NCBI GenBank assembly: GCA_029557905.1
Contig: JAKQHR010000072.1
Coordinates: forward strand, 23,109 to 87,108
DNA: 64,000 nt
Direction: 5' to 3'
DNA from: Verrucomicrobiota bacterium
GTDB taxonomy: Bacteria > Verrucomicrobiota > Kiritimatiellia > JAKQHR01
How positions within the stretch are numbered: position 1 is the stretch's first letter; each line of letters begins with the position of its first letter. Below are positions 16,601-60,384 of the stretch, in pieces. The notes beneath the pieces were generated by a model. That model was not told the DNA's origin. It worked only from the letters and a program-made list of their open reading frames with translations, and did not search any database. Position numbers and translations under genes: made by a program.

Positions 16601-16662
16601 CGGGGCAATCGTTGCGTGAAAATAGTTTTTTGTGTATAAAAGAAGGTCAGGAAGTCGGGTGC

Positions 16663-25770: not shown

Positions 25771-26721
25771 TCAGCGCATGGACCGCAGGACCGTCTTCAG
25801 GCGACCGACAATAACCGGAACCCAGTATTCCTGAGCATCAGAGGTTCCGTCGCGCCAGAACAGGCGGTACAGCCAGTTCATATAGGCGATGCCCTGCAGA
25901 GCCAGAAAAAGATTCAGGTCGCTGTCTGAACAACGGCCGCGTCCATAGGTTTTTGCCACGACTTCCTTGAAAGCGTCGAAACGCGGATCCCCGATGAATT
26001 CAAAAAGAATGTGGGCCAGATCGAAGAGATACCAGCCGAAGCCGCACTCATCGAAATCAATCATGTTCGCTTTACCGTCATCGAACAGGAAATTGCCGGC
26101 ATGCAGGTCATAATGAATGAGACCAAAGGTTTGCGCGGTGCGCGGATATTCCTTCAGGCGCGCCCGGATCAAGTCATTGACGTCCCGCAGATATGAGCAG
26201 GCCTGCGGTTCAATCTGCTTCATGAATTCATCGCCCGCGGTCCACGATTTTTCGCCAAAGAACCAGCCGTCGTCATAAACGGGCCGCACAAATCCGGCGG
26301 GCGGCCGGTAGGCTGAAGAGAAGCCGTGCAGCTGCGCCACGGATCGGGCCATGGATGCCATGTGGGCCGAAGTGATTTCATTTCCCCCGAGATGCACTCC
26401 GCTCACCCAGTTGAAGATGATGCACATGTAATCATGTCCACCGTCGTTAACCATGCAGAAAAGCTCTCCGCTCCGGGCAGCCAGCGGCGCGGGTATATCA
26501 GCGCCCGTGCGCGTATGGAAGTCGTGGAGGACCATCAGTTCCGAGGCAATCTGCTCCTGATAGTCCCCGATGATCCTGCGGATGCGCAGCGCATAATAAC
26601 GGCCGTTGTCTGTTTGCAGTCTGAACACCACGTTTTCCGAAGTGCGCACATGCTCGTATCCGGTCACCATGAGATCGTAGTGATCAAGAAAGCGCGGCAG
26701 CAGTTCGGAATAATTTTTCAC
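25771..26721 (-). CDS. phosphotransferase-family kinase (APH / homoserine kinase II-like fold)
   Basis: LIHYDLHAGNFLFDD (catalytic HxDxxxxN) and IDFDECGFG (DFG-like) motifs of the APH / choline kinase superfamily. Confidence 0.6.
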   Translation of the reverse strand: MKNYSELLPRFLDHYDLMVTGYEHVRTSENVVFRLQTDNGRYYALRIRRIIGDYQEQIASELMVLHDFHTRTGADIPAPLAARSGELFCMVNDGGHDYMCIIFNWVSGVHLGGNEITSAHMASMARSVAQLHGFSSAYRPPAGFVRPVYDDGWFFGEKSWTAGDEFMKQIEPQACSYLRDVNDLIRARLKEYPRTAQTFGLIHYDLHAGNFLFDDGKANMIDFDECGFGWYLFDLAHILFEFIGDPRFDAFKEVVAKTYGRGRCSDSDLNLFLALQGIAYMNWLYRLFWRDGTSDAQEYWVPVIVGRLKTVLRSMR

Positions 26722-27257
26722 TTGCGCTTTTGAGTTCCCGTTATTGGATCAGGGCAGTGCGGCCTGCGGCCGCATTTCCCGCAGTGCACCCCCATCCACA
26801 CCTGGTCGAACTGCTCCATGATCTGCCGGACCATGGATGCATCCGTTGTCACAATCCCGGATTCAAAATTGCGGCGCTGAGGGCTTTTTGCGCCCATGCC
26901 GGCTCCGGTCAGGTTTGCACTTCCGGTATAGGCCACGCGGCCGTCCACAATGACGGACTTGAAGTGCACCCGCGGGCACAGGATGCGCTCCATGCCGGAA
27001 ATCAGATTGGGATACCGGTCAAAATCGCGCCGGAAGTTCGGGCCCGGCTCCTTGGCGTGAAGCAGGCGGATCGCAACGCCCTGCGCGCAGAGCGCGGACA
27101 ACACCCCGAGGAACGGGATCATGCGCCGGCCCTGCGCCACATGGAGGTCCTTCAGGTCCGCCGTCGCGAGCCACAGGAATTCCCTCGCCTGCGGCACGTC
27201 GGTCTGTATCACACGCCGGTAAATCTCCGCATCGCTGATGAATTCGGTGTTTGGCAT
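26718..27257 (-). CDS. phospholipase D-family (single HKD) protein, Nuc-like
   Basis: HFKSVIVDGRVAYTGSANLT is the HxK(x4)D(x6)GSxN motif. C-terminal Cys cluster HCGKCGRRPHC. The start is set at MPNTEFI (ORF-track start 27305). Confidence 0.6.
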   Translation of the reverse strand: MPNTEFISDAEIYRRVIQTDVPQAREFLWLATADLKDLHVAQGRRMIPFLGVLSALCAQGVAIRLLHAKEPGPNFRRDFDRYPNLISGMERILCPRVHFKSVIVDGRVAYTGSANLTGAGMGAKSPQRRNFESGIVTTDASMVRQIMEQFDQVWMGVHCGKCGRRPHCPDPITGTQKRK

Positions 27258-27305
27258 TTCTAAATGGATTTGGCGCCTGTCACAGGGCGTTTTGTCAGAA
27301 AACAC

Positions 27306-28454: not shown

Positions 28455-29540
28455 ATGAGGAAGATAAAGAAATCAAGGTGCATGCGCTGTTTTCTGCTGC
28501 TGTTCTGGCTGGCACTGCCGGGGCTCTGCCGCAGCGCCGAAACGAACGCGGCCTCAAATGCGGCCATTGAGGAGGAGGAGCTTTATTTCTTCTATGACAC
28601 ATGGAACGTCATTTACAACAAGGAAGACCTTGTCAGGGAAATACCGGATTCCATTCGCATAGCCTCATATAATCTTGAGAACTTCACGGATGGTTACGAA
28701 GACCCGCCCGAACGGACGCCGAAGCGGCTCGCAGCTCACGTCAAGGGGGCCGCAAAAATCATTGCCGAGCTTGATCCCGACATCATCATCCTGCAGGAAC
28801 TCGAAAACAAATACGCCCTGCGGCTGCTCAACAAGGCTTTGACCAATGCCTATCCCCTGGGATACACCACTTTCTTCCGGCACCGCTGGGGCGAAATTGA
28901 CACGCTCAATATCGGGGTTCTATCCCGTATTCCCCTGAAAGACGTGCGCACCATCCGCTTCACCAAGGCCAACGGCGCTGACCGCCCCATTCGCGGCATG
29001 CTGGCTTTTGAAGTGGAAGTCGGGCCCGACGACCACCGGCTGCTGCTTTACGGGATTCACCTCAAATCCAACTACGGCAACGATGCGGCAAACCAGCGGC
29101 AGCGCAAGCGAAGCCTGGAAATCCTGATGACGGATATGGCGGCGGTGGCCAGCAATGCCCCCGGCCGCGAGTACGAAGTGCTGGTGCTCGGCGACACCAA
29201 TGTGGATCCCGACAATGAACAGTTCAAAAAAGATGTTTCGCTCAAGCCCCTGTCCTCCATGTCAGACCTGTGGCGGGGAAGACCGCTGGAGGAGCGGATC
29301 ACCATCCCCACCCGCTATGGCGATCCCGAAATGGAGTTTCCCCCGGCGGCGTTCGACCGCATCTTCGTGAGCAAAAACCTCAAGAAAGCGCCGTGGGTGG
29401 CCGGTCAGGCGCAGGTGCTCCAGAAGGGCTGCCACACCAACGACTCCTCTGTCCTTCCCGGCGACAAGGGGCATGTATCGGATCATTACCCCGTCTGGGT
29501 GGATATCCACCGGAAAAAGCCGTCCCCTGCCTCCAAATAA
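28455..29540 (+). CDS. secreted endonuclease/exonuclease/phosphatase (EEP) family protein
   Basis: Signal peptide. IASYNLENF ... IIILQE ... GDTN ... SDHYPV motifs of the DNase I-like EEP fold. Confidence 0.65.
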   Translation: MRKIKKSRCMRCFLLLFWLALPGLCRSAETNAASNAAIEEEELYFFYDTWNVIYNKEDLVREIPDSIRIASYNLENFTDGYEDPPERTPKRLAAHVKGAAKIIAELDPDIIILQELENKYALRLLNKALTNAYPLGYTTFFRHRWGEIDTLNIGVLSRIPLKDVRTIRFTKANGADRPIRGMLAFEVEVGPDDHRLLLYGIHLKSNYGNDAANQRQRKRSLEILMTDMAAVASNAPGREYEVLVLGDTNVDPDNEQFKKDVSLKPLSSMSDLWRGRPLEERITIPTRYGDPEMEFPPAAFDRIFVSKNLKKAPWVAGQAQVLQKGCHTNDSSVLPGDKGHVSDHYPVWVDIHRKKPSPASK

Positions 29541-33432: not shown

Positions 33433-33858
33433 ATGAATAAGGGGAGTTTCGAAGAAGCGCTGCTGCAGCTGGCGGAGGAAAATCCGCAGTACGACCCCCA
33501 TGTCTACGGATTCATGCGGGAGGCGCTGGATTTCACCATCAAGCTGCTCAAAAAGCCGGCCGAAGGAGAGGCTCGCCATGTCACAGGCCGGGAACTGACA
33601 GACGGCATCAGGCAGTACGCCCTCAGGGAATTCGGCCCTCTTGCCAAGACTGTGCTGAATCACTGGGGAATATTCACAACGGAAGATTTCGGAAAAGTCG
33701 TCTTTCTGCTCATCAGCAAGGGAATTTTTGGAAAGAGTGAAAAGGATTCGGCTGCGGATTTCGCAAACGGCTACGATTTTGAAGACGCCTTCAGAACTCC
33801 TTTCAGGCCGCTGGCCGGCCGGGCGGAGAAATTCTTTGAGCAAAAGGAGCTGTTCTAA
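33433..33858 (+). CDS. hypothetical protein (141 aa), first gene of a translationally coupled trio
   Basis: No motif assigned. Its stop overlaps the next start (TAATG). Confidence 0.5.
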   Translation: MNKGSFEEALLQLAEENPQYDPHVYGFMREALDFTIKLLKKPAEGEARHVTGRELTDGIRQYALREFGPLAKTVLNHWGIFTTEDFGKVVFLLISKGIFGKSEKDSAADFANGYDFEDAFRTPFRPLAGRAEKFFEQKELF

Positions 33859-34238
33859 TGGAAAATCAGGAAAAGGATAAAGCCTCTCTTTTCTCGCAGC
33901 TTGTGGCGATGTTCAGCACATCGGCCATGCATCATCTCGGCAAGCTGGTGGACCCCGGCTCGGGCAAGGCCGAAGTCAATCTCGACGGCGCGCGCATGTC
34001 CATTGATCTGCTGACCATGCTTCAGGAGAAGACGGCCGGGAATCTGACGGAGGACGAGGACCGGATGCTGAAGGAGGTGCTGACCGTTCTCCGCCTGAAC
34101 TACGTGGAAACCGCAAATCAGTCCCCCCCGCCCGCTTCGTCTGCACCCGCGCAGGATGATAAGCCGAAGAGGGAAAAAGCTGAATCCGCGGCAGGGAAGG
34201 AAGAGAAAGAACCCCGCTTCCACAAGTCATACAGCTGA
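33858..34238 (+). CDS. DUF1844-like small protein
   Basis: MENQEKDKASLFSQLVAMFSTSAMHHLGKLVDP..GKAEVNLDGARMSIDLLTMLQEKTAGNLTEDE matches my recollection of the DUF1844 pattern. Lys/Glu-rich tail. Confidence 0.45.
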   Translation: MENQEKDKASLFSQLVAMFSTSAMHHLGKLVDPGSGKAEVNLDGARMSIDLLTMLQEKTAGNLTEDEDRMLKEVLTVLRLNYVETANQSPPPASSAPAQDDKPKREKAESAAGKEEKEPRFHKSYS

Positions 34239-34933
34239 TGGTCAGACTTATCAAATGGGCCGATGCCGCAGCCAGGGAGGTTTGGGCCTTCCTGAAGTTT
34301 GCAGGCCATCTTGCCCGGCCGTCATCGCATCCGGCCGTTCAAGTGAGCGGCCTGCTGAGCCTGGCCATCCTGATCGGCCTTCTGGCCTATATCTCCCGCG
34401 CCACAGTGCACTATGCATATATCCCGCCCGGTGAATCTGTGCTCCAACAGGCGGAACTGCACCTGCTGACCGCGGTCAGGGCGGAACCGGATGCCTTCAA
34501 ACCCAACATGCGGCTTCCGCATCGAAGCGAGATAAGAAGCTCGGGAGCCATCCATCTGAAGGCCTTCTTCCCCGAATATGACCTGATGCATGTGGATGAC
34601 CCCCGCGTCTGGTGGGAAAGCGACCATGATACAGATGACGTGGAGGATGATCATCTGGTGCACTACGCCATGGAAATTCCCTTGAAGCGCCTGATTGAGC
34701 TGGTGCATCGTGAAGGAGGAAAACTGAAGGTTCAGGACGCCTACCGCGCGGACGGGATCCATTACCCCAAATCACTTCACAAGGAAGGCAGGGCCATTGA
34801 TTTGACCTGCGAGAACATGACTCTCGAAAAGCTTGCCAAGCTTTGCTGGGCCGCCGATTTTGACTGGGTCTTCTATGAGGCTCCGAAGGGCGGAGGTCAT
34901 CACATCCATGCCTCCGTCCGCGCCGACCGGTGA
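34238..34933 (+). CDS. membrane-anchored Hedgehog N-terminal signalling (Hedge) domain-like protein, LAS/M15-type zinc peptidase fold
   Basis: KLKVQDAYRADGIHYPKSLHKEGRAIDLTCENMTLEKLAKLCWAADFDWVFYEAPKGGGHHIHASVRADR aligns closely with Sonic hedgehog [69 protein letters not shown], including the Zn ligands H, D and H. N-terminal TM helix VSGLLSLAILIGLLAYI. Confidence 0.6.
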   Translation: MVRLIKWADAAAREVWAFLKFAGHLARPSSHPAVQVSGLLSLAILIGLLAYISRATVHYAYIPPGESVLQQAELHLLTAVRAEPDAFKPNMRLPHRSEIRSSGAIHLKAFFPEYDLMHVDDPRVWWESDHDTDDVEDDHLVHYAMEIPLKRLIELVHREGGKLKVQDAYRADGIHYPKSLHKEGRAIDLTCENMTLEKLAKLCWAADFDWVFYEAPKGGGHHIHASVRADR

Positions 34934-35005
34934 GGTATTTCCCGGCGGCCTCCGTACAATTATGCACTTTACGCAAAGCATAACGGCCGCTATCTTCATT
35001 GCATC

Positions 35006-36319
35006 ATGAATTCAAAGATGGCGGTTGCAATAGGTTCGGATCACGGCGGTTTTGATCTCAAGCAGGCGCTCATTCCATATCTCAAAGAGATCGGTTTCAC
35101 TGTGGTGGACTGCGGCATACGCGACAAGGCCACCGCCGACTATCCCCGCATTGCCTTCGGAGTCGCCCAGCGTGTGGCCTCCGGCCAGTGCGCACGGGGC
35201 ATTGTGATTGACGGCGCAGGCATCGGGTCGGCCATGACCGCCAACAAGGTTCGCGGCGTGCGGGCTGCCGCCTGCTACAGCGTTGCGCTGGCCAACAATG
35301 CCCGCGAGCACAATGACGCAAATGTCTTGACTCTCGGCTCGGGCCAGACCAGTCTGGAGGACGCTAAAGGCATTATAACCAAGTTTCTAGGCACCGATTG
35401 CACCGCGGCGCGGCATCTGCGCCGGGTGCGGATGATAGAGGAAGTCGAGCGCGGCGCGCTGAAAGTTCAGCCGCCGGAATCAGGAAAACAGGAGAACGAA
35501 GTGGACCTTTCACCTCAGGATGTCGAACGGATTGCACAACGGGTCAAACAGCTCATTTCCGGAGGCGGAAGCGCCGCGCCTTCGGGCAAAGCGGCGGGAG
35601 TCACCCCCACCCAACTCGCGGGTATGATTGATCATACCATTTTGAAGCCGGAAACCTCCCGCAGCGATGTTGATCGCATTTGCAAGGAAGCGCTGCAGTA
35701 CAAGTTCTGCTCGGTGTGCGTGAATCCGGTGAACGTGCCCCAGGTGGCCAAGGCGCTCAAGGGCTCAACCGTCAAGGTCTGCTGTGTGGTCGGATTCCCC
35801 CTGGGCGCGGCCGATCCCTCCATCAAGGCCCTTGAAACCCGCAAGGCCATCCGCGAAGGCGCGCAGGAAATTGACATGGTCATCAATGTCGGCGCCCTGA
35901 AAAGCGGAGACTACGACCTGGTTCTGCGCGATATCCGCGCCGTGGTTGAAGCCTGCCAGGAGCGGCGCATCCTTTCCAAAGTCATTCTGGAGACCAGCCT
36001 GCTGTCCGATGAGGAGAAGGTCAAGGCCTGCGAACTGAGCATGAAGGCCGGGGCCAGTTATGTGAAAACATCCACCGGCTTCAGCGGCGGCGGAGCCACG
36101 GCTGCGGACATCGCGCTGATGGCGGCGACGGTGGCCTCCAAGCGGCTGGGAGTGAAAGCCTCGGGCGGAGTCCGAAACTACCAGGACGCCATCAACATGA
36201 TCAACGCCGGCGCCACGCGCATCGGTGCCAGCAGCAGCGTGAACATTATTGAAGAAGCCAAGGCCGTTGCCGAAGGCAGGGAATATAAACCGGATTCGAA
36301 ATCGAAAGGAGCATACTAG
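35006..36319 (+). CDS. RpiB/LacAB-type sugar-phosphate isomerase fused to deoxyribose-phosphate aldolase (DeoC), with an inter-domain amphipathic helix and Gly/Ala/Pro linker
   Basis: The N-terminal half ([15 protein letters not shown]...[20 protein letters not shown]) is RpiB-like. The C-terminal half ([11 protein letters not shown]...CVVGFPLG...KVILET...VKTSTGF) is DeoC class I aldolase. Between them lies [27 protein letters not shown]. Confidence 0.75.
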
Positions 36320-36936
36320 TGGCTGAATTAAGAACATATGTGTTTCTGGACAGTCTGCAACCGCAGCACGCGTCCTTCCTTGCGACCGTGGCGAAGGGAT
36401 TTTTGCCGACGGCCGGACAGGCGTCGCTGTTCGTGGAGATTGCTCCGGGCATCGCGATCAACAGCGTGACCGACGTGGCCCTCAAGTCCACAAACGTGAC
36501 GCCGGGCATGCAGATCGTTGAACGCCAGTACGGCATGCTGGAAATCCATTCGGACTCCCAGGCCGACGTGCGTGAGGCCGGACGCGCCATCCTGCGCGAA
36601 CTGGACCTCAAGGAAGAGGACCGCATCAAACCCAAGGTGCTCACAAGTCAGGTCATCCGGAGCGTGTCCGACTATCAGACGCAGCTCATCAACCGCATGC
36701 GCCATGGAAACATGATTGTCCCCGGCGAAACCATGTATGTGATGGAAATCGCCCCGGCCGGGTATGCCGCGCTGGCGGCCAACGAGGCTGAAAAAGCGGC
36801 GCATATCAACATCCTGGAAGTGCGCGCAACCGGAAGCTTCGGGCGTGTATATCTGGGCGGCGATGAGAAGGATATTGACGTGGCCTACCGCGCGGCGGAG
36901 CAGGCTGTCGAAGCAATCGTGGGAAGAGAAGGTTGA
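36319..36936 (+). CDS. BMC-T shell protein, tandem circularly permuted BMC domains (EutS/PduU-like x2)
   Basis: Both halves show the permuted-BMC pattern (FVEIAPGIAINSVTDVALKS... and MYVMEIAPAGYAALAANEAEKAAHINILEV...GSFGRVYLGG), comparable to EutS [29 protein letters not shown]...FSGALVIYGS. Confidence 0.55.
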   Translation: MAELRTYVFLDSLQPQHASFLATVAKGFLPTAGQASLFVEIAPGIAINSVTDVALKSTNVTPGMQIVERQYGMLEIHSDSQADVREAGRAILRELDLKEEDRIKPKVLTSQVIRSVSDYQTQLINRMRHGNMIVPGETMYVMEIAPAGYAALAANEAEKAAHINILEVRATGSFGRVYLGGDEKDIDVAYRAAEQAVEAIVGREG

Positions 36937-36980
36937 TTTTCCCCGTCATCATCAGAAAACAAAGAAGAGAGAGGTAAGAA

Positions 36981-37283
36981 ATGGCTGAAGCATTAGGTAT
37001 GATCGAAACACGGTCTTTCCCCGCGAGCGTGGAAGCGGCCGATGCAATGGTTAAGGCAGCGAAGGTTGAACTGGTCTCCTTTGAGAAGACCGGCGGAGGA
37101 TATACTTCCGTCGTGGTGCGGGGCGACGTGGCCGCTGTGAAAGCCGCCTGTGACGCCGGGCAGATCGCCGCCGGACGCGTGGGTGAAGTGGTGGCCGTGC
37201 ATGTGATTGCACGCCCGCATGCCAACGTGGACGCGGTCCTTCCGCTGGGACGCGCCACCGAGTCGTCCAAGGCCAAGAAATAA
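36981..37283 (+). CDS. BMC-H hexameric shell protein (PduA/CcmK/EutM family)
   Basis: [60 protein letters not shown] is the canonical BMC domain. Confidence 0.9.
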
Positions 37284-37343
37284 TTTAGCGCGCAAAGCGG
37301 CCGGGCGGTGATGCCGCCCGGCCGCCTTCAGGAGTTCCAAGGA

Positions 37344-37640
37344 ATGAATCTTGGCAAAGTGATAGGCACAGTGGTTGCCACGCGCAAGGAATCCAGCATG
37401 GACGGCTTGAAGTTCCTGCTGGTGCAGCATTTGGATCACGAACGCAAACCCACCGGTTCTCAGGTCGTCGCGGCGGACGCCGTCGGCGCCGGACCCGGGG
37501 AAATGGTTCTTGTCGCAACAGGCAGTTCCGCCCGCCAGACCGCGGCCACCGACAAACGTCCCTGTGACGCCGTCATCATGGCCATCGTGGACAGCTGGAG
37601 CGTGGACGGCGTGACCAAATACTGCAAGTCAGACGACTGA
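37344..37640 (+). CDS. BMC-P pentameric vertex protein (EutN/CcmL/PduN family), paralog 1
   Basis: [28 protein letters not shown]... The start is set at Met13 of ORF 37308 and is preceded by aagga. Confidence 0.8.
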
Positions 37641-37759
37641 TGGTCAGTCGCTGCGCGCGTGGATGATTCTCCCGGACGGACCTCACGGTTTCCGGTTCCG
37701 CGTTGATTTGCCGCCCGCCAAAGCGGGCAATGTGTTCAGTTATAGACGAAAGAAGGTAT

Positions 37760-39208
37760 GCTATGGCAAAACTGACCGATCAGGATATTGAAGCCATTGC
37801 CCAGAAAATAGTCAGCGATCTGAAAGGCGCAGCCCCTGCCCCGTCCGCATCTGTGGAAAGGACTCCGGCCGCCGCCGTCGCCGGGCCCGGCGTGTTTCAA
37901 ACACTGGATGAAGCCGTCGCCGCAGCAGGCAAAGCCCAGCCCGTTTTCGTCGCGCTTCCGATGGAAACGCGCGCAAAGATCATTGAAAATATCCGCAAGA
38001 GCATGATGGAGAATTCCGTCGCCCTGGCCAAGGCGGCACACGAGGAAACCGGGCTTGGGCGCTTTGAGGACAAGATTGTCAAGAATCAGCTGGTGACCAT
38101 GAAAACCCCCGGGATTGAAGATCTTCCTCCGAAGGCCTATACCGGGGATCACGGACTGACACTGGAGGAGCCGGCCCCGTTCGGCGTTATCGGCTCCATT
38201 ACTCCGACGACAAACCCGACCTCCACCATCATCTGCAACACAATCGGCATGATTGCCGCAGGGAACAGCGTCGTGTTCAACTGCCACCCGAGCGCCGTGA
38301 ACTGTTCGATGCAGACCATTGTCCTTCTCAACAAGGCCATTATGGAAGCCGGCGGACCTCCCAATGTAATCACGGCCGTTGCCAAACCGACGATCGAAAG
38401 TGCACAGGCCCTTATGAAGCACCCGGGCATCCGCCTGCTGGTGGTCACCGGCGGCGGCGGTGTGGTAAAGGCGGCCATGGAGAGCGGCAAACGCGCGATT
38501 TGCGCCGGACCCGGCAACCCGCCGGTTGTCGTGGACGAAACCGCGGATCTCGAACAGGCCGGCCGCGATATTGTTCTCGGCGCCTCGACTGACAACAACA
38601 TTATCTGCGCCGATGAAAAGGAAGTGCTGGTCGTCAGCAGCGTGGCCGACAAGCTGATCCAGGTCATGACGCGCAACAATGCCGTTCTGATCGACAAGAG
38701 CAAGCTTCAGGCGCTGGAGAAGGTCATCTTCAAGGAAATGGCCGGGCCGCGCGGCCATGCAACCGTCAACCGTGACTGCATAGGGAAGAATGCCGATGTC
38801 ATCCTCGCGAAGATGGGCATGAATGTGCCAAGCACAACGCGTCTCGGAATCATCGAGGTGGATCAGAACCATCCGCTGGTCTGGACTGAGCAGATGATGC
38901 CGATCCTCCCTATCGTGCGCGTTCCCGACGCCAGCTATGCGATTGATTTCGCAGTGGAGGTTGAAGGCGGATGCCGTCACACCTTTGTGATGCACTCGCG
39001 CAACATTGACAATCTCAGCAAAATGGCGAAGAAGTGCAATGCCAGCCTGTTTGTGAAAAACGGACGCTCCCAGACCGCATTCGGCCTCGGCGGCGAAGGC
39101 TACTGCTCGTTTACCATCGCCAGTCCCACCGGCGAAGGCATGACCGGCCCGCACAGCTTCTCGCGTTCGCGCCGCTGCATCCTTGTGGATCACTTCAGGA
39201 TTGTGTAA
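37760..39208 (+). CDS. CoA-acylating aldehyde dehydrogenase (PduP/EutE-like) with N-terminal encapsulation-type helix
   Basis: ALDH fold with catalytic Cys region (IICADEKEV...NNIICA) and no C-terminal extension. The N-terminus DQDIEAIAQKIVSDLKG is followed by an Ala/Pro-rich linker. The start is set at MAKLTDQ. Confidence 0.85.
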   Translation, partial: AMAKLTDQDIEAIAQKIVSDLKGAAPAPSASVERTPAAAVAGPGVFQTLDEAVAAAGKAQPVFVALPMETRAKIIENIRKSMMENSVALAKAAHEETGLGRFEDKIVKNQLVTMKTPGIEDLPPKAYTGDHGLTLEEPAPFGVIGSITPTTNPTSTIICNTIGMIAAGNSVVFNCHPSAVNCSMQTIVLLNKAIMEAGGPPNVITAVAKPTIESAQALMKHPGIRLLVVTGGGGVVKAAMESGKRAICAGPGNPPVVVDETADLEQAGRDIVLGASTDNNIICADEKEVLVVSSVADKLIQVMTRNNAVLIDKSKLQALEKVIFKEMAGPRGHATVNRDCIGKNADVILAKMGMNVPSTTRLGIIEVDQNHPLVWTEQMMPILPIVRVPDASYAIDFAVEVEGGCRHTFVMHSRNIDNLSKMAKKCNASLFVKNGRSQTAFGLGGEGYCSFTIASPTGEGMTGPHSFSRSRRCILVDHFRIV

Positions 39209-39819
39209 TGAAGAAATTCCCGGCCATGGCACTGGTGGAGTTCAACGGCATCGCCGTTGGCATGCATGCCACCGACGCCATGCTGAAGAAATCGCCCATC
39301 AATCTGCTGAAGTGCGGAACCATCAGTCGGGGGCATTATCTCACCGTTGTGGCCGGAACAACAGCCTCTGTGGACGAAGCCCTTGATGAAGGGCTCTTTC
39401 TGGCCGGAGACAACGTGGTGGACAGCACATTTCTCCCGGATATTGATACGCGTCTGCACAATGCGATACTGGGGCAGTCGCTTCCCATGAGTGCCGGCGC
39501 CATCGCCGTCATGGAAACGCCCACCGTCTGCTGCAATGTGCGGGCTGCCGAAATGGCGCTTAAGGGCACGCCGGTCGAACTGGTTGAAATCCGCCTGGGC
39601 GACTCACAGATGGGCGGACGCGGCATGTCAATTTTTCAGGGGGAGCTGCACGATATCGAGGCATCCATAGACATTGCGGTCGCCTATCTGCAGGGCAAAA
39701 ACATCGAGCCCGTGTATAAAATCCTCACGGCCCCGCATGAAGGAATGCTTGCGCAGATTGAAAACAGCACCAGGTTCCTCAACTCAACCAACCTGGAACT
39801 TGAAGGGGAGTTTGACTGA
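39208..39819 (+). CDS. BMC-T shell protein, tandem canonical BMC domains (PduT/CcmO-like), contains CC motif
   Basis: AMALVEFNGIAVGMHATDAMLKKSP and AIAVMETPTVCCNVRAAEMALKGTPVELVEI are two canonical BMC domains. The ATG overlaps the aldDH stop (TAATG). The start is set at MKKFPAM. Confidence 0.75.
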   Translation: MKKFPAMALVEFNGIAVGMHATDAMLKKSPINLLKCGTISRGHYLTVVAGTTASVDEALDEGLFLAGDNVVDSTFLPDIDTRLHNAILGQSLPMSAGAIAVMETPTVCCNVRAAEMALKGTPVELVEIRLGDSQMGGRGMSIFQGELHDIEASIDIAVAYLQGKNIEPVYKILTAPHEGMLAQIENSTRFLNSTNLELEGEFD

Positions 39820-39820
39820 A

Positions 39821-40108
39821 ATGAAACTGGGCAAAGTCATTGGACAGGTTGTTCCATGCGAGGTTTACGAGGGACTCGAAACCGTTCCCATGCTCTGGGT
39901 GCAGCCGCTCGACAAGAAGGGCCATCCCAAGGGCGCAGCGATCGTCTGTGCGGATTCCACCCGCATGGCGGGTCCCGGGGAGCTGATCTACTATGAGGGC
40001 GGACGGGAAGCCGCAATGACACTGGATCCGGTTTTTGTTCCTGTTGACCATGCCATTGTCGGCATCGTGGACGACATGGCGCTGGACCAGGGTGGAGGTG
40101 ACGCATGA
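39821..40108 (+). CDS. BMC-P pentameric vertex protein, paralog 2
   Basis: MKLGKVIGQVVPCEVYEGLETVPMLWVQPLD... matches the EutN/CcmL fold pattern. The start is set at the internal Met of ORF 39674. Confidence 0.8.
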   Translation: MKLGKVIGQVVPCEVYEGLETVPMLWVQPLDKKGHPKGAAIVCADSTRMAGPGELIYYEGGREAAMTLDPVFVPVDHAIVGIVDDMALDQGGGDA

Positions 40109-40374
40109 TCGCAGGCAGAGTGACCGGCCATATCTTCTCCACGATCAACCATCCCTTCTATGACGGGAAGCGCATGCTTGTCGTCGAGAAGATTGACGAA
40201 AACGGGAAGGCGCTGAACGATTATGTCATTGCCGTGGACACCGTGGATGCCGGACCCGGCGACAAGGTTCTCATCGTGGATGAGGGCAACGGAGCGCGCC
40301 AGATTCTTCAGTCCTCCGACGGCCCCGTTCGCTCCGTGATTGTCGGGATCATTGATCAGATCACAGTGGATTGA
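40105..40374 (+). CDS. BMC-P pentameric vertex protein, paralog 3
   Basis: MIAGRVTGHIFSTINHPFYDGKRMLVVEKIDENG...VDTVDAGPGDKVLIVDEGNGAR is the EutN/PduN pattern. Overlaps paralog 2 by 4 nt. Confidence 0.8.
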   Translation: MIAGRVTGHIFSTINHPFYDGKRMLVVEKIDENGKALNDYVIAVDTVDAGPGDKVLIVDEGNGARQILQSSDGPVRSVIVGIIDQITVD

Positions 40375-40399
40375 TCAGCCGGTCCGGCACGGCTCCGGC

Positions 40400-43300
40400 C
40401 TATTCCTCCTTGATTCCGTACCGCTTCCGGAAAAACGAAGCAACAGACTCTACCGTGCTGTACATCGAAGGCACAAGCAGAAGTGTAAGAATGGTGGCCA
40501 GAAGCAGGCCAAACACCACGGCAATGGCCATTGGCGCCCACCACTGGGTTGATTCGGCTCCGGCGATAATGCGCGGCGGCCACTGATGAAATTCCACACT
40601 ATAGCCCACCGCCATGGGAAGCAGACCCAGTATGGTAGTGACCGCCGTCAGCAGGACGGGGCGCAGGCGCATGGCTCCAGCGGCAATTACAGCTTCTCTC
40701 GTATCCATCCCCTCTTCCCGCCGCTGCAGGATGCAGTCAATGAGCACAATGGCATTATTAACGACTATTCCGGCCAGACTGATCACCCCCAGGCCCGTCA
40801 TGATGATCCCGAATTTCATCCGGCAGAGCATCAGCCCCCACATGACCCCAATAAGAGATAATAGGACGGTAAACATGATAACAAACGGGAGCAGCACGGA
40901 GTTGAACTGGATCACGAGTATCACAAAGATGAGTCCGCTGGCGATCATGAAAGCTCTGCCCAGAAACTCGCCCGACTCCTGCATTTCCTGCGTATCGCCG
41001 GCGTACGTAATCGTATAGCCGCGGGGAAGTGTCATATCGGACAGCCGCACCTTCACATCGGCAAAGATTTCATCCACTCCCCTGTGCTGATTATCCCCGA
41101 TGATCTTGATCACCCGCTTCTGGTTCTTTCGCTTGATGGCACCCTTCCCGCCTGTGTATTCAACACGGCCCAGAGAGGTCAGGGGCACGTTTTGTCCGGT
41201 CGGTGCGGGTATCAGAATCTGATCCAGCAGGGTCACGGTATTACGCTGCTCTTCCGGAAGGCGGAGAGTGATGTCATATTCATCCTCGTCGGCCCGGAAT
41301 TTGCTGCTCTCTGTTCCATAGACCGCCGTGCGCAGGAAATTACCGATCCGGGAGGTGTCCAGACCAAACAGCGCGGCGCGCTCGCGGTTTACGACAAACT
41401 GAATTTCCGGGAGAGCATCCTCCATATCATCGCGCAGCTCCACGAGCCCGGGGACCGTATCTATCCGGTGGAGGATTTCAGAGGCGTAATCCGAAAGCAC
41501 CTCGAAATCATCCCCCGAAATCTCAATTTCAACGGGATTCCCCATGGGCGGACCTTCTTCCTGTTTCGTCACGGTAACCTCAGCCCCGGGAATGAGACCT
41601 ATGTCATCGCGTATCTGCGCGATCAGATCAAAGGTGCTGCCTTTCCGGTCCTGCGCCGCATGAAACTCCACATGAATGTTTGCAATGTGTGTCCCTCCCT
41701 GCCCGCCTCCTATAATTCCACCGGCGGCAGATCCCACCGTGGAGAGACAAAACTTGATATCTTCGTACTTCTTCAGCTTCTCTTCAATAGCCGCAACCGC
41801 TGAATCCGTGCGTTCAATGCTGGTGCCTTCGGGGAATTTAATGCCGATGGTTGCGGAGCGGGGCTCCACTTCGGGAAAGAGTTCAAACCCGAGATCCTTT
41901 CGCGCATACAGCATGAATGAAAACACAAGGAATGCGAAACCCAGCGCCAGCACGGTCAGTCGGTTCGCGAGCACGAACCGGAGCAGTTTCTCATAGCCAT
42001 GAACAAACCAGTGCTGCCGCGGACGAGCCTCACGCTTTCTGGCACTGATCAGCGCCGAACACACAGCCGGGTTAATGACGATGGCGACGAAAAGCGATGC
42101 GCTCAGAACGATCAGCAGTGTGCGCGGCAGAAATCCCATGAACTGCCCCATAATATCCGGCCAGAAAAGGAGAGGACAAAAGGCGGCCAGCGTGGTGAGC
42201 GTTGAGGTGATCACGGGCCAGGCCACTTCAGATGCGCCCCGTCGGGCGGATTCATGCCGGGTCAAACCCAGGGTCCTGTTGCGATAGATGTTTTCTACAA
42301 TCACAATGGCGTTATCCACAAGCATGCCGACCGCCAGCACCAGACTGAACAGCACAATCATGTTCAGCGTCATGCCTCTGGCACTAATGACCGTAAAGGC
42401 AATCAGCATGGAGAAGGGAATAGCCAGGCCCACAAAGAATGCGTTGCGCCATCCCAGAAATACAAGCAGCACCACCACAACAAGAATAAAGCCGGTGGCA
42501 ATATTGTTTTCCAGTTCTTCGATCATCATGCGGACATATTCCGACTGGTCCATAACAATGGTGACCTCGATTCCCGGCGGGAAACCATAACTGTCAAGGA
42601 CTGTGCGCACGCGGTCAATGACCCCCACGGTGTTTTCGCCTGAGCGCTTCATCAGCGAAATGGACACGCTGGGCTTCCCGTTGATGCGTGAAATGGAGGA
42701 TAGATCCTTGTAGGTGTCGGTGATCGTGGCGATATCGCGCAGGTAGACGGACCGGCCACCGCGATCGACCAGCATAAGGTCGCGGATATTTGGGACCAGT
42801 TCAAACTCACCGGGGATGCGGACCTGGAATTTGTCCCCTCTAGTCTCCAGATTCCCGGCCGATATGGTTCTGTTTTCAGAGGCTATCCTCTGGAGCACCA
42901 GGTCCATCGGAATCCCAAAGGCAGCCAGGCGGCTGATGTCAATTTCCACCCGGATTTCTCGCTCCCGCGTCCCGGATATCACTGCCTGTTTCACCCCGGG
43001 AAGCTGTTCGATGCGATCTTCCAAATCCTCAGCAAGGTTTTTGAGACGGTCCAGAGGAGTGTCGCCGGACAAGGTGAAAAGAAGTACAGGCCAGTCTGTG
43101 CTGAAATTGACAGCCTGCGCAACCGGTTCATCCAGGTCGGCCGGCAGATCGGGACGGGCCAGATCAATCTTGTTCTTCACCCGCTGGAGAGCAAGGTCCA
43201 TATCCTCCCCGGAGAGGAACTCAATGGCAATGGAAGATACCCCCTCAGCCGAGGTGGAGGTGATGTCCTTCACGTTCTCAAGGTCATTGAACTGCTCCTC

Positions 43301-53845: not shown

Positions 53846-54325
53846 TCAGAGCAGATCTTTGAGCGCCGTGTCGTAAACCGAACGCGTATTGAAACCGCTG
53901 ATTTTCCGGAGCAGTTTCCCGTTCAGAAAAAGACGGACATCCGGGATGCTCTGCACTTCAGCCGCCTGTGCTTCAGCCGGATGATGATCCACATTCACCC
54001 CGACAAACAGCACGCGTTCCGACCACACACCGGCGAGATCATCAAGAACCGGCTTTAAGCTTCGGCAGGGAGGACACCAGTCGGCATAATAATCCACAAC
54101 CACGGCACGGTTGCTCTGCACAATGCCGCTGAGAGCCTCACCGCGCTGCAGCATGTAGATGTTCTCCGGAGTCCTTTGTCCGACTTCATGCCATGCAATG
54201 AAACCTCCGATCACGGCACCGATAAAGGCCGCGTTCACAGGAGCCAGCCGGAGTTTTCGCACCTTCAGGCCCGCAATGAATCCGATCAGAGCACCCAGCA
54301 CCGAAGCCGCAATCAATACCGGCAT
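53846..54325 (-). CDS. membrane-anchored thioredoxin-like protein
   Basis: Two N-terminal TM helices, then YADWCPPCR (WCxxC) thioredoxin fold. Confidence 0.6.
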   Translation of the reverse strand: MPVLIAASVLGALIGFIAGLKVRKLRLAPVNAAFIGAVIGGFIAWHEVGQRTPENIYMLQRGEALSGIVQSNRAVVVDYYADWCPPCRSLKPVLDDLAGVWSERVLFVGVNVDHHPAEAQAAEVQSIPDVRLFLNGKLLRKISGFNTRSVYDTALKDLL

Positions 54326-54328
54326 GAA

Positions 54329-54847
54329 TCAGTCCGCGGCGGGGGCCGGCGGGGGAGTGAACACGCGCGCGGCCAGTTCTCGATCCAGCATGAACATGCC
54401 CTGTTTGGAATCACCCGTGAGGCGGATTTGATCCAGGATGCCCGTGGCGTTTTCCTCTTCCTCTATCTGCTCGGTCACATACCACTGCAGGAATATCTCC
54501 GAGGCATAGTCGCCCTCTTCACGAGTAAGCTTCATCAGGCTGTTAATACGGGAAGTCACAAAACGCTCGTGCTCCAGCGTCTGCTCGAAAAGGGCCTTGA
54601 TCTCTGTCCCCTTCAATTCGGGCTTGTCCACGGCCTCCATCACAGGCAGAGCACCCTGACTGCACAGATATTTAAAGAACTTGTCGGCATGAGTCAGTTC
54701 CTCCAGGGCCTGGATGTGGAACCAGTTCGCACATCCCTTGAAACCCTGCGCCTCGGCCTGAGCCGCCATCGCGTAATACAGATAGCTGGAATATATTTCC
54801 TTGTTGATCTGATCGTTAATCGCTTTTGCCAGTTTTTCGGATATCAT
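54329..54847 (-). CDS. ferritin (non-haem, Ftn type)
   Basis: KEIYSSYLYYAMAA...EELTHADKF...EHERF ferroxidase-centre residues. Confidence 0.85.
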   Translation of the reverse strand: MISEKLAKAINDQINKEIYSSYLYYAMAAQAEAQGFKGCANWFHIQALEELTHADKFFKYLCSQGALPVMEAVDKPELKGTEIKALFEQTLEHERFVTSRINSLMKLTREEGDYASEIFLQWYVTEQIEEEENATGILDQIRLTGDSKQGMFMLDRELAARVFTPPPAPAAD

Positions 54848-54922
54848 TTTTTCTCCTGCTGCTGATTAGAGATGAAGCCGGGGGCCTGTGACGGCCCCCG
54901 GCTTTCTGTGATCATACGGACC

Positions 54923-55300
54923 TCAGGACTTCCAGAGACCGTGTACGTTGCAGTACTCGCGCGCGGACACGTCTTTGGCGCTGATTCCGTCAAACACGGC
55001 CACAGGCTGGTCGCCGGGCTTCAGGAATTTGCGGCCCACCTTGTCGTCAAACTGAATCTCAATCCACTCAATGTAATGCTCCGGCAGCATCGGGTGCAGT
55101 GTGCTTCCCACGGTGACCTTGTATCCGGTATCTGTTTTCTCGATCACGGGAACATGTTTTTCCGTGGTCTTGTCGGCGGTCTTCTCTTCGAGCCGCTTCA
55201 TCGGCTCGCCGCAGCACACGAGTTCGCCGTCTCCGGCATGCAGAACACTGACGATGTTTCCGCACATTTCACATTTGTAGATTTCAAGACGCTTTGTCAT
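54923..55300 (-). CDS. dfx: desulfoferrodoxin (2Fe superoxide reductase)
   Basis: N-terminal desulforedoxin CEMCGN...VCCGEPM and C-terminal SOR centre (EKHVPV ... H ... C). Confidence 0.85.
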
Positions 55301-55323
55301 GGGCTTCTCCTTATGTTGTTCGA

Positions 55324-55896
55324 TTACCAGTTTTCCGCCAGCAGTTCAAAGTGAGCCTGAGGATGAGCGCAGGCCGGGCACACGGTCACCGCCTCTTTGC
55401 CGGTGTGAATATAGCCGCAGTTCATGCAGCGCCAGACCACTTCCTTGTCCTTCTTAAACACCTTCTGGGCATCCACATTAGCCTTCAGGTCGAGATAACG
55501 TTTTTCGTGCTGCTTTTCCGCAACCGCGATGGCTTCAAAGACTTTCGCTATCTCGGGGAATCCTTCTTTGCGCGCGGTTTCCGCAAACGAGGGATACATT
55601 TCAGTCCACTCGTAGTGTTCTCCCGCGGCGCCATGCTCAAGATTTACAGAAGTGGATGCAATGGTGCCGGCCGGGAAAGAGGCCGTGATTTCCAGTTCGC
55701 CGCCCTTCAGAAACTTGTAGAGGCGCTTGGCATGCTCTTTTTCCTGATTTGCTGTTTCCTCGAAAATCTCCGAAATCTGACGGAAACCTTCTTTCTTCGC
55801 CGCCCCGGCATAGTAGGTGTAGCGGTTGCGGGCCTGGGATTCCCCCGCAAACGCGGTCAAAAGGTTTTTCTCGGTTTGACTGCCTTTCAATTCCAT
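55324..55896 (-). CDS. rbr: rubrerythrin
   Basis: Di-iron ferritin-like domain (ExxH x2) plus C-terminal rubredoxin-like CMNCGY...CPACAHP. Confidence 0.9.
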
Positions 55897-55912
55897 TTTT
55901 CCTGTCTCCTGA

Positions 55913-57058
55913 TTACAGTTTTTTTCCTATCATTTTTTCATATTTCCTGAAATCCACGGAGGATCCCGCCATCTGGATTCCAATCAGTATCCCCGCTTTC
56001 ACAAGAAGAGCTCTGTGAATTTCAGCACTATTCTCTAAAACTACCTCATCTGCGCCGTTTTCGCAAGCCGGACCGATGGAATTTAAGGAGAACCCCTCAT
56101 ACGTATAGGATACGGGAACATCTGCCGATTTATGCTCAGCCATCGCTCCGCCCTGCGCGGCAGCCAACGCGTTGGCCGCCGCCAGTTTGCCCTGCATGAC
56201 CGCCTCATAAACAGAAAAATGCGGACAGGGCGGCCATTCCACAATGTCGCCCCCGGCAAAAACCGACGGATCCGAAGTCTGCATGCCGGCCGTCACGAGA
56301 ATGCCGGCGCCGCATTTGAGACCGGCCGTGCGCGGCAGGGAAGTGTCCCGCCGCGCGCCCACCGCAAGGATAACCATGTCGGCCCGATCCGAGTCCCCGG
56401 AGTCCATCTGCAAGTGGAAATCACCGGCAGGCGCTTTCTTCAGCGAGCTCACGCATGTGCCCAGACAAAGCCTGACCCCCATGCCCCTGAGGGAATTTTC
56501 AACAACGACCGAAGCCTCCGTTCCAAAATTGGATTCCATCAGATGTCCCAGCCGCTCCACGAGAACAACCTGCAGTCCCGCCAGAACGGCGCGATGGGCC
56601 ACCTCCACCCCGAGAATGCCCCCGCCTACGACCGCCAGTCTCTTCCCGGGAGAAAGCAGGCGCCGTATATCTTCGGCATGGCCCAGATGCCAGAGCGGAT
56701 GGATGTGCTCCAGCGCATGACGGGCAAAAGGCGGCACGGCGGGAAGAGACCCTGTTGCGAATATCAGTGCATCGTATTTTTCCGTTCCGAGTTTGGATGT
56801 CAGGCTGCGCGCGGAGAGATCACAGCTTGTGACGGGTGTATTCAGGAGAAGCGCTATCCCGCGCGATTCATACCACGCCGCATCATGCATGGTGATCTCT
56901 GAAAGAGACGACTGACCAAAGGCATAGCCCACCAGCTTGGGCCGGTAATAGGGCAAAACCGGTTCCGCGGAATACAGATGAACTTCTGCCCCCTGCGCGG
57001 AAGCCGTTTCTGCAGCTTTCACTCCGGCATGGCCCGCGCCTATAATGCCCACTCTCAT
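55913..57058 (-). CDS. FAD-dependent NAD(P)H:rubredoxin / disulfide-family oxidoreductase
   Basis: GIIGAGHAG (FAD) and a second Rossmann fold ([10 protein letters not shown]). Pyridine nucleotide-disulfide oxidoreductase fold without the CxxxxC redox centre. Its position in a rubredoxin/rubrerythrin cluster supports a rubredoxin reductase role. Confidence 0.65.
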
Positions 57059-58653
57059 TCAGTCACCGCCTTTCGAATCAGGGGAATGGCGCGGGGGCTG
57101 CAGCTCACCGAGCGGATGCCGCAGGCCATCAGCTTTTTAACCATGTCCGGCATGCCGGCCAGTTCGCCGCAGACAGACAGAGGTCTGTTCTTTTTGCGCG
57201 CCGCGGAAGCCAGGGTTCTCATCAGTGCCCAGAACACGGGATGATCCGAGCTGTAATCATCCGCAACCAGCGCGTTGTCACGATCCACTGCGAAAAGATA
57301 CTGGGTGAGATCATTCGTCCCCACGCTTGCGAACTCGGCTTCGCGGAATATTTCATCGGCCTGAATGGCTGCGGAAGGGACTTCAAACATCACGCCGAAT
57401 TCAACAGTTCCCGTGCGGATATCAGCCGCATACTCCTTAAAAGCGTCGCGCAGCCTGCAGAACTGCTGGACATCCACGACCATGGGAAACATCACGCGGA
57501 CCGGGCCGGCCTGTGATGCCCGCGCAATGGCGCGCGCCTGATCGCGAAACAGGTCCGGATAGCGCAGCAGCAGGCGGCTTCCCCGCAGCCCCAGTGCAGG
57601 ATTTTCCTCCTGCGGGATTCTCAGCTCCGGCAGAGGCTTGTCCCCTCCGGCATCAAGCATCCGAAACGTGGTGACGCGCCCGTTCATGGCTTCGACCACG
57701 GACGTGTATCGGGCGCACTGCTCCTCTTCCCGCAGGATCTCTCCGGAAGAAATAAACTCGAATTCCGTCCGGTAGAGCCCGATCCCCTCGGCCCTCATTT
57801 CACAGGCCTCGCCCGCTTCCCCGCACAGCGTGATATTCGCCAGAACCTTCAGCTGCGGGACAGGATCCATTGCTTCCGCCCGGCGGGCACGGCCGATGGC
57901 GCAGGAACAGGCCGCCAGAGTCTCCGGCGCGGGGGATATGATCACCTCGCCGGTGTCTCCGTTAACCAGTATGTCGGTTCCGCAGGCGACCGAGCTGTGT
58001 ATGTTCCGGATTCCGCTGACCGCGGGAATGCCGAGAGCACGCGCCAGAATGGCCGCGTGCGAATTGATCCCGCCGCGCTCGGTCACGAAGGCCAGCACTT
58101 CATCCGTGTTCATGCTGATGGTCAGGCTGGGCGTCAGTTCCTCGGCGACCACAACGCGGTTTCTGCCCCGCCGGCAGCGGCCGGCACAGCTCAGGCCGGG
58201 AACTGTATTAGCCAGATTGTTGAGCAGCCGCCGGCGGATTTCACCGACATCCGATGCCCGCTCGCGGATGTACTCGTCATCCAGTGCGCCCAGCCTGGAT
58301 TCATATGCATCCAGCACACGATGGATGGCATGTTCCGCGTTGCTCAGTTCCGCACGGATATGCTCCCGCATCTCCCTTGATATCTGCGGATCCTCGACAA
58401 TCATTTTCTGAGCGCTGAATATACCGGCTTCCGCCGTACCCATGCGCTCATGAACATGGGTGCGGATATCCTCGAGCTGCCGGGTTGTGATCTGCAGCGC
58501 TTCCTCCAGGCGGAGAATTTCATCGTCGATCCGGGAGGGTTCGATGGCGTAGGCCGGAACTTCCTGATGACGATGATCATCAAATAGACAAACGCGCCCA
58601 AGCGCCATTCCTCCGCTTAGCGGAAGCCCCTGAGCGCGTCTCTCCAGGCTCAT
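57055..58653 (-). CDS. phosphoenolpyruvate-protein phosphotransferase (PTS enzyme I family)
   Basis: GGINSHAAILARALGIPAV (phospho-His domain) and C-terminal PEP-utilising TIM barrel (GTNDLTQY, CGE). Confidence 0.7.
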   Translation of the reverse strand: MSLERRAQGLPLSGGMALGRVCLFDDHRHQEVPAYAIEPSRIDDEILRLEEALQITTRQLEDIRTHVHERMGTAEAGIFSAQKMIVEDPQISREMREHIRAELSNAEHAIHRVLDAYESRLGALDDEYIRERASDVGEIRRRLLNNLANTVPGLSCAGRCRRGRNRVVVAEELTPSLTISMNTDEVLAFVTERGGINSHAAILARALGIPAVSGIRNIHSSVACGTDILVNGDTGEVIISPAPETLAACSCAIGRARRAEAMDPVPQLKVLANITLCGEAGEACEMRAEGIGLYRTEFEFISSGEILREEEQCARYTSVVEAMNGRVTTFRMLDAGGDKPLPELRIPQEENPALGLRGSRLLLRYPDLFRDQARAIARASQAGPVRVMFPMVVDVQQFCRLRDAFKEYAADIRTGTVEFGVMFEVPSAAIQADEIFREAEFASVGTNDLTQYLFAVDRDNALVADDYSSDHPVFWALMRTLASAARKKNRPLSVCGELAGMPDMVKKLMACGIRSVSCSPRAIPLIRKAVTE

Positions 58654-58668
58654 TATTTCACATCCCGT

Positions 58669-60383: not shown

Positions 60384-60384
60384 A

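Follow-up and report, generated by a model that had tools for sequence, protein, structure and literature searches.

A probable SPU3-type sugar-phosphate-utilising metabolosome locus with a fused RpiB-like/DeoC enzyme in a Kiritimatiellia bacterium

Introduction

Does a compact microcompartment locus that pairs an RpiB-like/DeoC fusion with an aldehyde dehydrogenase represent a new kind of metabolic organelle, and which sugar phosphate would it consume? The question is raised by eight co-directional open reading frames (ORFs) at positions 35006-40374 on the + strand of a 64-kb stretch of DNA from a Verrucomicrobiota bacterium (GenBank assembly GCA_029557905.1, contig JAKQHR010000072.1, positions 23,109 to 87,108), referred to here as the window. 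The original prediction, made from the DNA letters, had delimited this bacterial microcompartment (BMC) locus with coordinates at which all eight ORFs were recovered and assigned to families, and had pointed out its likeness to the sugar-phosphate-utilising (SPU) class, while regarding it as a clean candidate for a new metabolosome type. Comparison with catalogues of BMC loci, which that prediction had itself proposed as a check, led instead to the published SPU3 subtype, which has already been described with exactly this content, the fusion and its internal encapsulation peptide (EP) included (Sutter et al. 2021, Nat Commun, Suppl. Data 2; Dwyer, Sutter and Kerfeld 2024, Commun Biol).

The SPU class comprises more than 280 loci in 26 phyla and is divided into seven subtypes (Sutter et al. 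2021), and it is thought to let anaerobes feed on the deoxyribose of environmental DNA. The analysis described here indicates, with a probability of about 85%, that the locus is a metabolosome operon of the SPU3 subtype in which 2-deoxyribose 5-phosphate (dR5P) is cleaved and the resulting acetaldehyde is captured as acetyl-CoA. The assignment is a feature-by-feature comparison with the published description. It is a further example of a known organelle type, not a new kind, and adds a Kiritimatiellia member to one of the most widespread and least studied metabolosome types.

Gene content and assignment to SPU3

In the published description, SPU3 (31 loci) combines an aldehyde dehydrogenase (AldDh) with pfam01791 and pfam02502, the latter two being fused in 12 loci with pfam02502 on the N-terminal side, and carries an EP-like sequence inside the fusion in addition to an N-terminal EP on AldDh (Sutter et al. 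2021, Suppl. Data 2). The fusion has since been counted in 20 SPU3 loci, and its inter-domain helix regarded as a putative EP (Dwyer et al. 2024). The SPU3 shell consists of a single BMC-H, a triplet of BMC-P in which two are always neighbours, a CcmP-like BMC-T(dp), and a BMC-T(s) lacking both a PduS partner and the pore cysteine (Sutter et al. 2021); the published colour clades are green, grey and orange for BMC-P and the CcmP-like clade for T(dp). Verrucomicrobia and Lentisphaerae are among the host phyla of SPU3 (Sutter et al. 2021, Suppl. Data 2). The published example of the chimera comes from 'Verrucomicrobia bacterium ADurb.Bin018', and the fusion modelled by Dwyer et al. (2024) is that of a Verrucomicrobia bacterium from an anaerobic digester.

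All of the SPU3 features tested on the sequence were found in the window, where the gene order is fusion, T(dp), H, P, AldDH, T(s), P, P, with intergenic spacing of -4 to 122 nt. The enzyme set is limited, as predicted, to a CoA-acylating AldDH and a fusion of pfam02502 and pfam01791, with pfam02502 at the N-terminal side. The AldDH (gene 5, 37763-39208, +) matches the BMC enzyme of R. palustris (5JFL, E 3e-134; NF011927, 644 bits), its nearest relatives being this enzyme and that of C. phytofermentans (4C3S), and its catalytic Cys is aligned with that of 5JFL (NNIICADEKE versus NNLPCVAEKE).

The shell genes make up the full complement that had been predicted, namely one BMC-H, two BMC-T of different kinds and three BMC-P of the EutN/CcmL type by Pfam. 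Gene 2 (36319-36936, +) encodes a double-permuted tandem BMC-T(dp) whose best match in the PDB is CcmP (4HT5/5LSR, E 4e-76), followed by the BMC-T of Haliangium ochraceum (HO; 5V74, 1.4e-73) and ahead of CsoS1D (2e-51). It carries PF27545 (CsoS1D_N) and a weak PF00936 match, scores 313 bits against the NCBIfam CcmP model NF053796 (cut-off 340), and has E68/R69 aligned with the gating pair of CcmP. The single hexamer protein, BMC-H (gene 3, 36981-37283, +; PF00936, E 2.9e-28), has KAAK and ARPH edge motifs recognised by eye. The second tandem protein, BMC-T(s) (gene 6, 39208-39819, +), contains two PF00936 stretches and is PduT-like (E 2e-23), with Ser40 at the position of the PduT Fe-S ligand Cys38 (wild-type PduT 3PAC, 'tiCpgkf' versus 'tiSrghy'); it is accompanied by no PduS in the window and lacks the pore cysteine, as in SPU3. 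All three BMC-P proteins carry PF03319: the lone member is gene 4 (37344-37640, +; E 1.4e-32), for which the start is placed at 37311 in the Joint Genome Institute (JGI) record and at a GTG at 37308 in the ORF list, and the adjacent pair is formed by gene 7 (39821-40108, +; E 4.1e-17) and gene 8 (40105-40374, +; E 1.5e-23), which overlap by 4 nt.

In a Pfam search across all 64 kb, no phosphotransacylase (PduL/PTA), acetate kinase, alcohol dehydrogenase, PduS, cobalamin enzyme or locus regulator came to light, in agreement with the absences that had been predicted, and tblastn of the eight proteins against the window returned no second copies of shell genes or enzymes. SPU loci without a phosphotransacylase (PTAC) typically encode BMC-T(dp) (Dwyer et al. 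2024), and this is the combination seen here.

The fusion protein and its aldolase domain

Gene 1 (35006-36319, +) encodes the fusion, with PF02502 at residues 7-144 (E 1.6e-45) followed by PF01791 (E 7.9e-17), and scores 281 bits against the NCBIfam deoC equivalog TIGR00126, for which the cut-off is 117. An AlphaFold2 (AF2) model built on a 54-sequence alignment has a mean predicted local distance difference test score (pLDDT) of 89.6 and two confident domains, residues 6-148 and 201-422. The second of these is a TIM barrel of the deoxyribose-phosphate aldolase (DERA, DeoC) type (35606-36271, +), which closely matches 5DBU (E 2.4e-78), one of the solved and active DERAs. Residue mapping equates D290, K325, K354 (the Schiff-base lysine) and K384 with E. 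coli D102, K137, K167 and K201, and D290, K354 and K384 are invariant in 132 fusion homologues. Judged by these residues, the DERA catalytic set is intact in the fusion; with the AldDH cysteine also in place, the predicted passage from DeoC to an acylating AldDH is upheld at the level of both active sites.

The N-terminal 206 codons of this gene (35006-35623) are left unannotated in the NCBI records of metagenome-assembled genomes (MAGs), HNR93863.1, HNS80464.1 and others among them. These records describe gene 1 as a 231-aa deoxyribose-phosphate aldolase only, a length that fits an internal start at Met207, and the RpiB-like domain and EP helix are thereby missed. This is an instance of the start-site problem of BMC cargo genes described by Dwyer et al.

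Between the two domains, the model places a helix at residues 170-186 (35513-35563, +), flanked by low-pLDDT segments (149-169 and 187-200). This amphipathic helix has the highest helical hydrophobic moment of the fusion (0.72, versus a mean of 0.26 with a standard deviation of 0.15), its D172 and V180 are invariant, and it resembles the AldDH's N-terminal end, LTDQDIEAIAQKIVSDL. With the 64 kb translated in six frames, the motif D[IVL]E.I[AV].[KR][IV] is confined to the fusion linker and the AldDH N-terminus, which suggests that the window codes for no other cargo with an EP. Counterparts of these motifs are present in orthologous loci, where the amphipathic motif at the AldDH N-terminus, with an A/P-rich linker after it, is also conserved. 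The model and these comparisons support the published idea that the inter-domain helix is an EP, and the recognition of one motif common to both cargo proteins of a single locus appears to be a small addition to the literature. By means of this shared helix, internal in the fusion and N-terminal in the AldDH, both cargo proteins would be targeted to the core and aggregated there.

The linker between the domains is 50-69 residues long in the window fusion, in an Acidobacteriota relative (L015) and in most metagenomic relatives. Most long-linker fusions among the reference-genome loci (L001-L009, L012, L017, L070) have an insert of about 50 residues between the equivalents of window residues 187 and 200, with conserved cysteines such as QCxTDMVCxC-GVC..K.PDT, an insert missing from the window, L015 and over 100 metagenomic relatives. 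The corresponding Cys-rich segment (C..DMVCxC.GVC), common to the long-linker fusions and the unfused SPU DERAs, is absent from the short linker of the window. The insert may be a metal-binding element.

A remodelled RpiB-like domain

The N-terminal domain (35021-35449, +; residues 6-148) was compared with canonical RpiB by alignment to 3HE8 and 1NN4. It shares fold and family with E. coli AlsB/RpiB and C. thermocellum RpiB (E 2e-36 to 3e-28) and retains the phosphate-binding and ring-opening residues D12, H13, H102, N103, R136, H137 and R140, that is, the equivalents of the canonical Asp-His, His99-Asn100 and Arg133/His134/Arg137. It differs from them in the catalytic residues, Cys66 and Thr68 of the E. 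coli enzyme being replaced by Asp69 and Ala71; ribose-5-phosphate isomerase B (EC 5.3.1.6) is recognised by Cys66 or an equivalent of the actinobacterial Glu75, together with Thr68, and this set was not found in the domain. Scores tell the same story: the domain passes the family-level models TIGR00689 (150 bits versus 88) and NF004051 (158 versus 135), but remains below the cut-offs of the rpiB equivalog TIGR01120 (131.4 versus 138.65) and of the RPI_actino model (123 versus 168). By residues and scores alike, this domain is not a conventional ribose-5-phosphate isomerase (RPI).

The altered site is nevertheless strongly conserved. Among 132 fusions, in which the identity of the domain to that of the window falls as low as 53%, ten active-site positions (D12, H13, D69, G70, A71, H102, N103, R136, H137, R140) are invariant or vary in one sequence, a degree of conservation reached by just 40 of the 138 domain columns; in the 54-sequence alignment, the DGAGIGS loop is wholly invariant. 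This conservation argues against simple decay to a scaffold and leaves open a catalytic or ligand-binding role. The invariance, Asp and Ala included, appears to add to the literature and bears on what the "RPI" of these loci does.

The Cys-to-Asp change is present in all SPU RPIs, for which no obvious catalytic role has been seen (Dwyer et al. 2024), and Asp69 of the window is a further instance of it. The original prediction knew of no experimental characterisation of the class, but the DERA and RPI of an SPU6 locus have been purified: the DERA is active on dR5P, the RPI has negligible activity as an isomerase of ribose 5-phosphate (R5P), and the two form a stable complex (Dwyer et al. 2024). 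In addition, self-assembly of SPU-type shells from Hodarchaeales has been reported (2025 preprint). The RpiB-like domain would most likely be an oligomerising or core-organising partner of DERA, and possibly one that still binds a sugar phosphate.

Distribution and relatives

The gene order of the window recurs in no fewer than seven further phyla. A scan of reference genomes found the eight-gene order intact in MAGs of Fraserbacteria, Neomarinimicrobiota, Fibrobacteraceae, Calditrichia and Acidobacteriota. The order is also kept in Myxococcota MAGs, with T(dp) duplicated, and in Lentisphaeria, on a contig that ends inside the AldDH gene. Across phyla, the shell proteins are generally 58-84% identical, except T(s) at 35-51%, and the fusion is 42-58% identical. 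Identity to positional orthologues in other phyla amounts to 72-84% for gene 3, 58-71% for gene 4, 47-73% for gene 7 and 49-64% for gene 8, while the BMC-P paralogues within the locus are mutually 30-37% identical (36-37% between gene 4 and the others). As each BMC-P is nearer to its positional orthologue (47-73%) than to its in-locus paralogues (30-37%), the triplet appears to be old. Moreover, two-domain fusions are found in more than 120 metagenomic clusters of the protein database, at 59-68% identity, several of which are labelled Kiritimatiellae or Verrucomicrobia.

In six loci from four phyla, a regulator of the SorC/DeoR type (helix-turn-helix plus PF04198, E ~1e-70) lies directly 5' of the fusion gene (L002 9038-9991, L003 9052-10002, L004 3532-4482, L007 3886-4836, L008 9052-10002, L009 8971-9921). 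It belongs to what is taken here to be the family of DeoR of B. subtilis, which senses dR5P. No homologue was found in the window, tblastn giving hits only at E > 2. Six further loci (L010, L013, L014, L016, L019, L077) were considered as fusions without a shell and rejected, as ORF calling shows separate, adjacent RpiB-like and DeoC genes; shell and AldDH genes were not found within 10 kb of the pair in L013, L014, L016 and L019. In L014 (9146-11326), as in L013, L016 and L019, an Asp-type RpiB is paired with an N-terminally extended DeoC, and in L014 a cytidine deaminase is encoded immediately upstream. An Asp-type RpiB/DeoC pair may function, or be encoded, apart from a shell locus. Both the regulator in six loci and the cytidine deaminase of L014 fit deoxynucleoside catabolism.

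Proposed mechanism

The proposal starts from what was observed in the locus and its relatives, namely gene content, domain identities, catalytic residues, an EP-like helix and synteny across phyla, and borrows three findings established for another subtype, SPU6: DERA acts on dR5P, RPI is inactive on R5P, and the two form a complex. In this proposal, dR5P from the breakdown of deoxynucleosides or DNA would enter the shell and be cleaved by DERA to glyceraldehyde 3-phosphate (G3P) along with acetaldehyde. The latter, volatile and toxic, would be trapped as acetyl-CoA by the co-encapsulated CoA-acylating AldDH with production of NADH, and G3P would leave for glycolysis. As genes for a phosphotransacylase, an alcohol dehydrogenase and PduS are missing, passage through the shell is required for NAD+/NADH, CoA and acetyl-CoA, for which the gated CcmP-like BMC-T(dp) is the most plausible route.

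Several points weigh against this proposal. A phosphopentomutase, nucleoside phosphorylase, deoxyribokinase, transporter or regulator that would tie the operon to deoxyribose was found nowhere in the 64-kb window. The permeability of the shell to large cofactors through BMC-T(dp), relied upon where internal recycling of NAD+ and CoA is lacking, is hypothesised, and the RpiB-like domain has no assigned reaction. Scans of 33800-40800 for promoters and terminators gave counts at or below shuffled expectation, so that the operon boundaries are set by gene spacing alone. Finally, neither the formation of SPU BMCs nor a need for them in growth on DNA or deoxyribose has been demonstrated in a native host, and the enzymology comes from SPU6, not SPU3 (Dwyer et al. 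2024).

As to the fate of acetyl-CoA, the window encodes, 18 kb upstream of the locus (16588-18750, +), a 720-aa ADP-forming acyl/acetyl-CoA synthetase with CoA_binding, Succ_CoA_lig and ATP-grasp_5 domains, which scores 512 bits against NCBIfam AcCoA-syn-alpha, below the cut-off of 567. With acetyl-CoA as its candidate substrate, this cytosolic enzyme could yield acetate and ATP in place of the missing PTA/Ack.

Alternative explanations

The original prediction had a pentose or deoxypentose phosphate isomerised and then cleaved. Cleavage stands, given the intact DERA set, but the isomerisation step is unsupported, with Asp69/Ala71 in place of the catalytic Cys/Thr and a score below the rpiB equivalog cut-off. 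That an active RpiB pentose-phosphate isomerase readies R5P or another pentose phosphate for DeoC is accordingly improbable, even if the domain is a full-length member of the RpiB/LacA/LacB family that passes both family-level models, keeps its phosphate-binding Arg/His residues and His102, and, by its fusion to DERA, implies functional coupling. As a matter of general chemistry, an aldose-ketose isomerisation requires a 2-OH, which dR5P lacks, and ribulose 5-phosphate (Ru5P) is not a DERA substrate. Moreover, R5P and Ru5P are not enzymatically linked to DERA without a transketolase, and the negligible R5P isomerase activity noted above was obtained with the sole SPU RPI assayed (Dwyer et al. 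2024). A second possibility, tentative and rather less probable than its opposite, is that the RpiB-like half is an enzyme or sensor with a remodelled but strictly conserved Asp69/Ala71 site for another sugar-phosphate ligand, which would make the protein a true bifunctional fusion and not an enzyme with a scaffold. Opening or anomerisation of the dR5P furanose ring, isomerisation of another sugar phosphate or a triose phosphate, and sugar-phosphate sensing are examples of what it might do. The invariance of all ten positions and of the DGAGIGS loop speaks for such a role, as do the carboxylate base used by M. tuberculosis RpiB (cited in Dwyer et al. 2024) and the existence of Asp-type RpiB and DeoC pairs with no shell genes within 10 kb. 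On the other hand, no activity has been found so far, the kinetics of the SPU6 DERA are unchanged by complex formation (Dwyer et al. 2024), RPI is wholly absent from SPU5, and a structural or interface constraint could explain the conservation; LacA, a non-catalytic subunit, likewise has Asp at this position (Dwyer et al. 2024). If the site does act on a ligand, a further sugar-phosphate step coupled to DERA would lie inside the compartment, and the window fusion, with both domains in one chain and a short linker, would lend itself to the search for it.

It is far less probable still that the locus serves another aldehyde, such as that from fucose or rhamnose in the manner of the Planctomycetes/Verrucomicrobia microcompartment (PVM), or that its shell genes are vestigial or related to those of the carboxysome. 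The host does belong to the Planctomycetes-Verrucomicrobia-Chlamydiae (PVC) group, in which PVM-type BMCs are common (Sutter et al. 2021), and T(dp) is very near to the carboxysomal CcmP. Yet a class II aldolase (PF00596), PTAC, acetate kinase, lactaldehyde reductase, RuBisCO and carbonic anhydrase are all absent from the locus and the window, the score of T(dp) falls short of the CcmP equivalog cut-off, and decay is opposed by ORFs that are all intact, conserved and syntenic across phyla. A PVM-type BMC was accordingly rejected on gene content, there being no PF00596, PTAC and acetate kinase beside AldDh, and so was a beta-carboxysome, no carboxysome genes (RuBisCO, CcmM, CcmN) being present in the window. 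An SPU3 metabolosome that processes dR5P remains the preferred reading.

Host and genomic surroundings

The exact gene 1 protein is present on 6 metagenome contigs; JGI contigs with exact proteins of the locus reach 149.5 kb (Ga0116237_10000255), and at NCBI these proteins are found in MAGs named Kiritimatiellia bacterium, which carry HNR93867.1. The host is an uncultured, anaerobic Kiritimatiellia bacterium of anaerobic-digester-type metagenomes. On the - strand of the window, at about 54000-62100, lies an oxidative-stress and redox cluster encoding ferritin, desulfoferrodoxin, rubrerythrin, rubredoxin, a hybrid-cluster protein with an Rrf2 regulator, and thioredoxin; rubrerythrin, desulfoferrodoxin, rubredoxin and the hybrid-cluster protein point to an anaerobe and fit a strictly anaerobic host. 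The GC fraction of the locus (0.589) is close to that of the window (0.580), and horizontal transfer was rejected as far as base composition is concerned, since there is no GC anomaly.

At the 3' end of the operon, a convergent gene for a resistance-nodulation-division (RND) efflux protein lies 25 nt past the end of gene 8. Upstream, separated by 72 nt from the operon, a 231-aa protein (34238-34933, +) gives a hit to PF01085, the signalling domain found at the N-terminus of Hedgehog (E 4.8e-12), a fold common to zinc DD-peptidases, and this gene is not kept beside related loci. Further upstream, by 5.5-8 kb, are a phospholipase D (PLD)-like protein (26718-27305, -) and a protein of the endonuclease/exonuclease/phosphatase family (28455-29540, +), both weak matches to nuclease families (MnuA, ExeM/NucH) and not conserved in related loci; a link between these neighbours and DNA scavenging is speculative. 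The window also contains a 1552-aa ORF (11681-16339, -) whose sole Pfam match is a short stretch of the alpha-amylase catalytic domain (E 2.3e-07).

Comparison with known systems

Among shells of other types, that of HO is similar in its close BMC-T(dp) homologue and in having a BMC-P triplet, and the AldDh of HO has relatives in SPU5 and SPU7 (Sutter et al. 2021). The main HO loci differ in that they lack the DERA and RPI signature enzymes, and their function is unknown (Sutter et al. 2021).

SPU6, represented by Chloroflexi bacterium GWB2_54_36, is the source of the only SPU enzymes characterised in vitro. It shares with the window the core of DERA, RPI-like protein and AldDh, the Cys-to-Asp change in RPI, the BMC-P triplet and BMC-T(dp). 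It differs in that RPI and DERA are not fused but form two proteins, both with an N-terminal extension of their own, the AldDh is of another clade and has a C-terminal EP, T(dp) is also of another clade, BMC-T(s) is missing, and a GntR regulator is present. With its eight genes, a single short-linker fusion as signature enzyme and accessory enzymes lacking, the locus of the window offers a compact SPU test system for asking what the RPI-like domain does and how cofactors pass through BMC-T(dp).

From SPU3 itself, the locus is set apart by the host, the label Kiritimatiellia not having been found in the searchable part of the 2021 supplementary files, by the short linker between EP helix and DERA, without the Cys-rich segment of most long-linker fusions, and by the lack of an adjacent SorC-type regulator, unlike the six related loci. 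None of these differences is essential; the fused enzyme and its intact aldolase site, the AldDH, the two putative EPs and the composition of the shell all agree with the published subtype.

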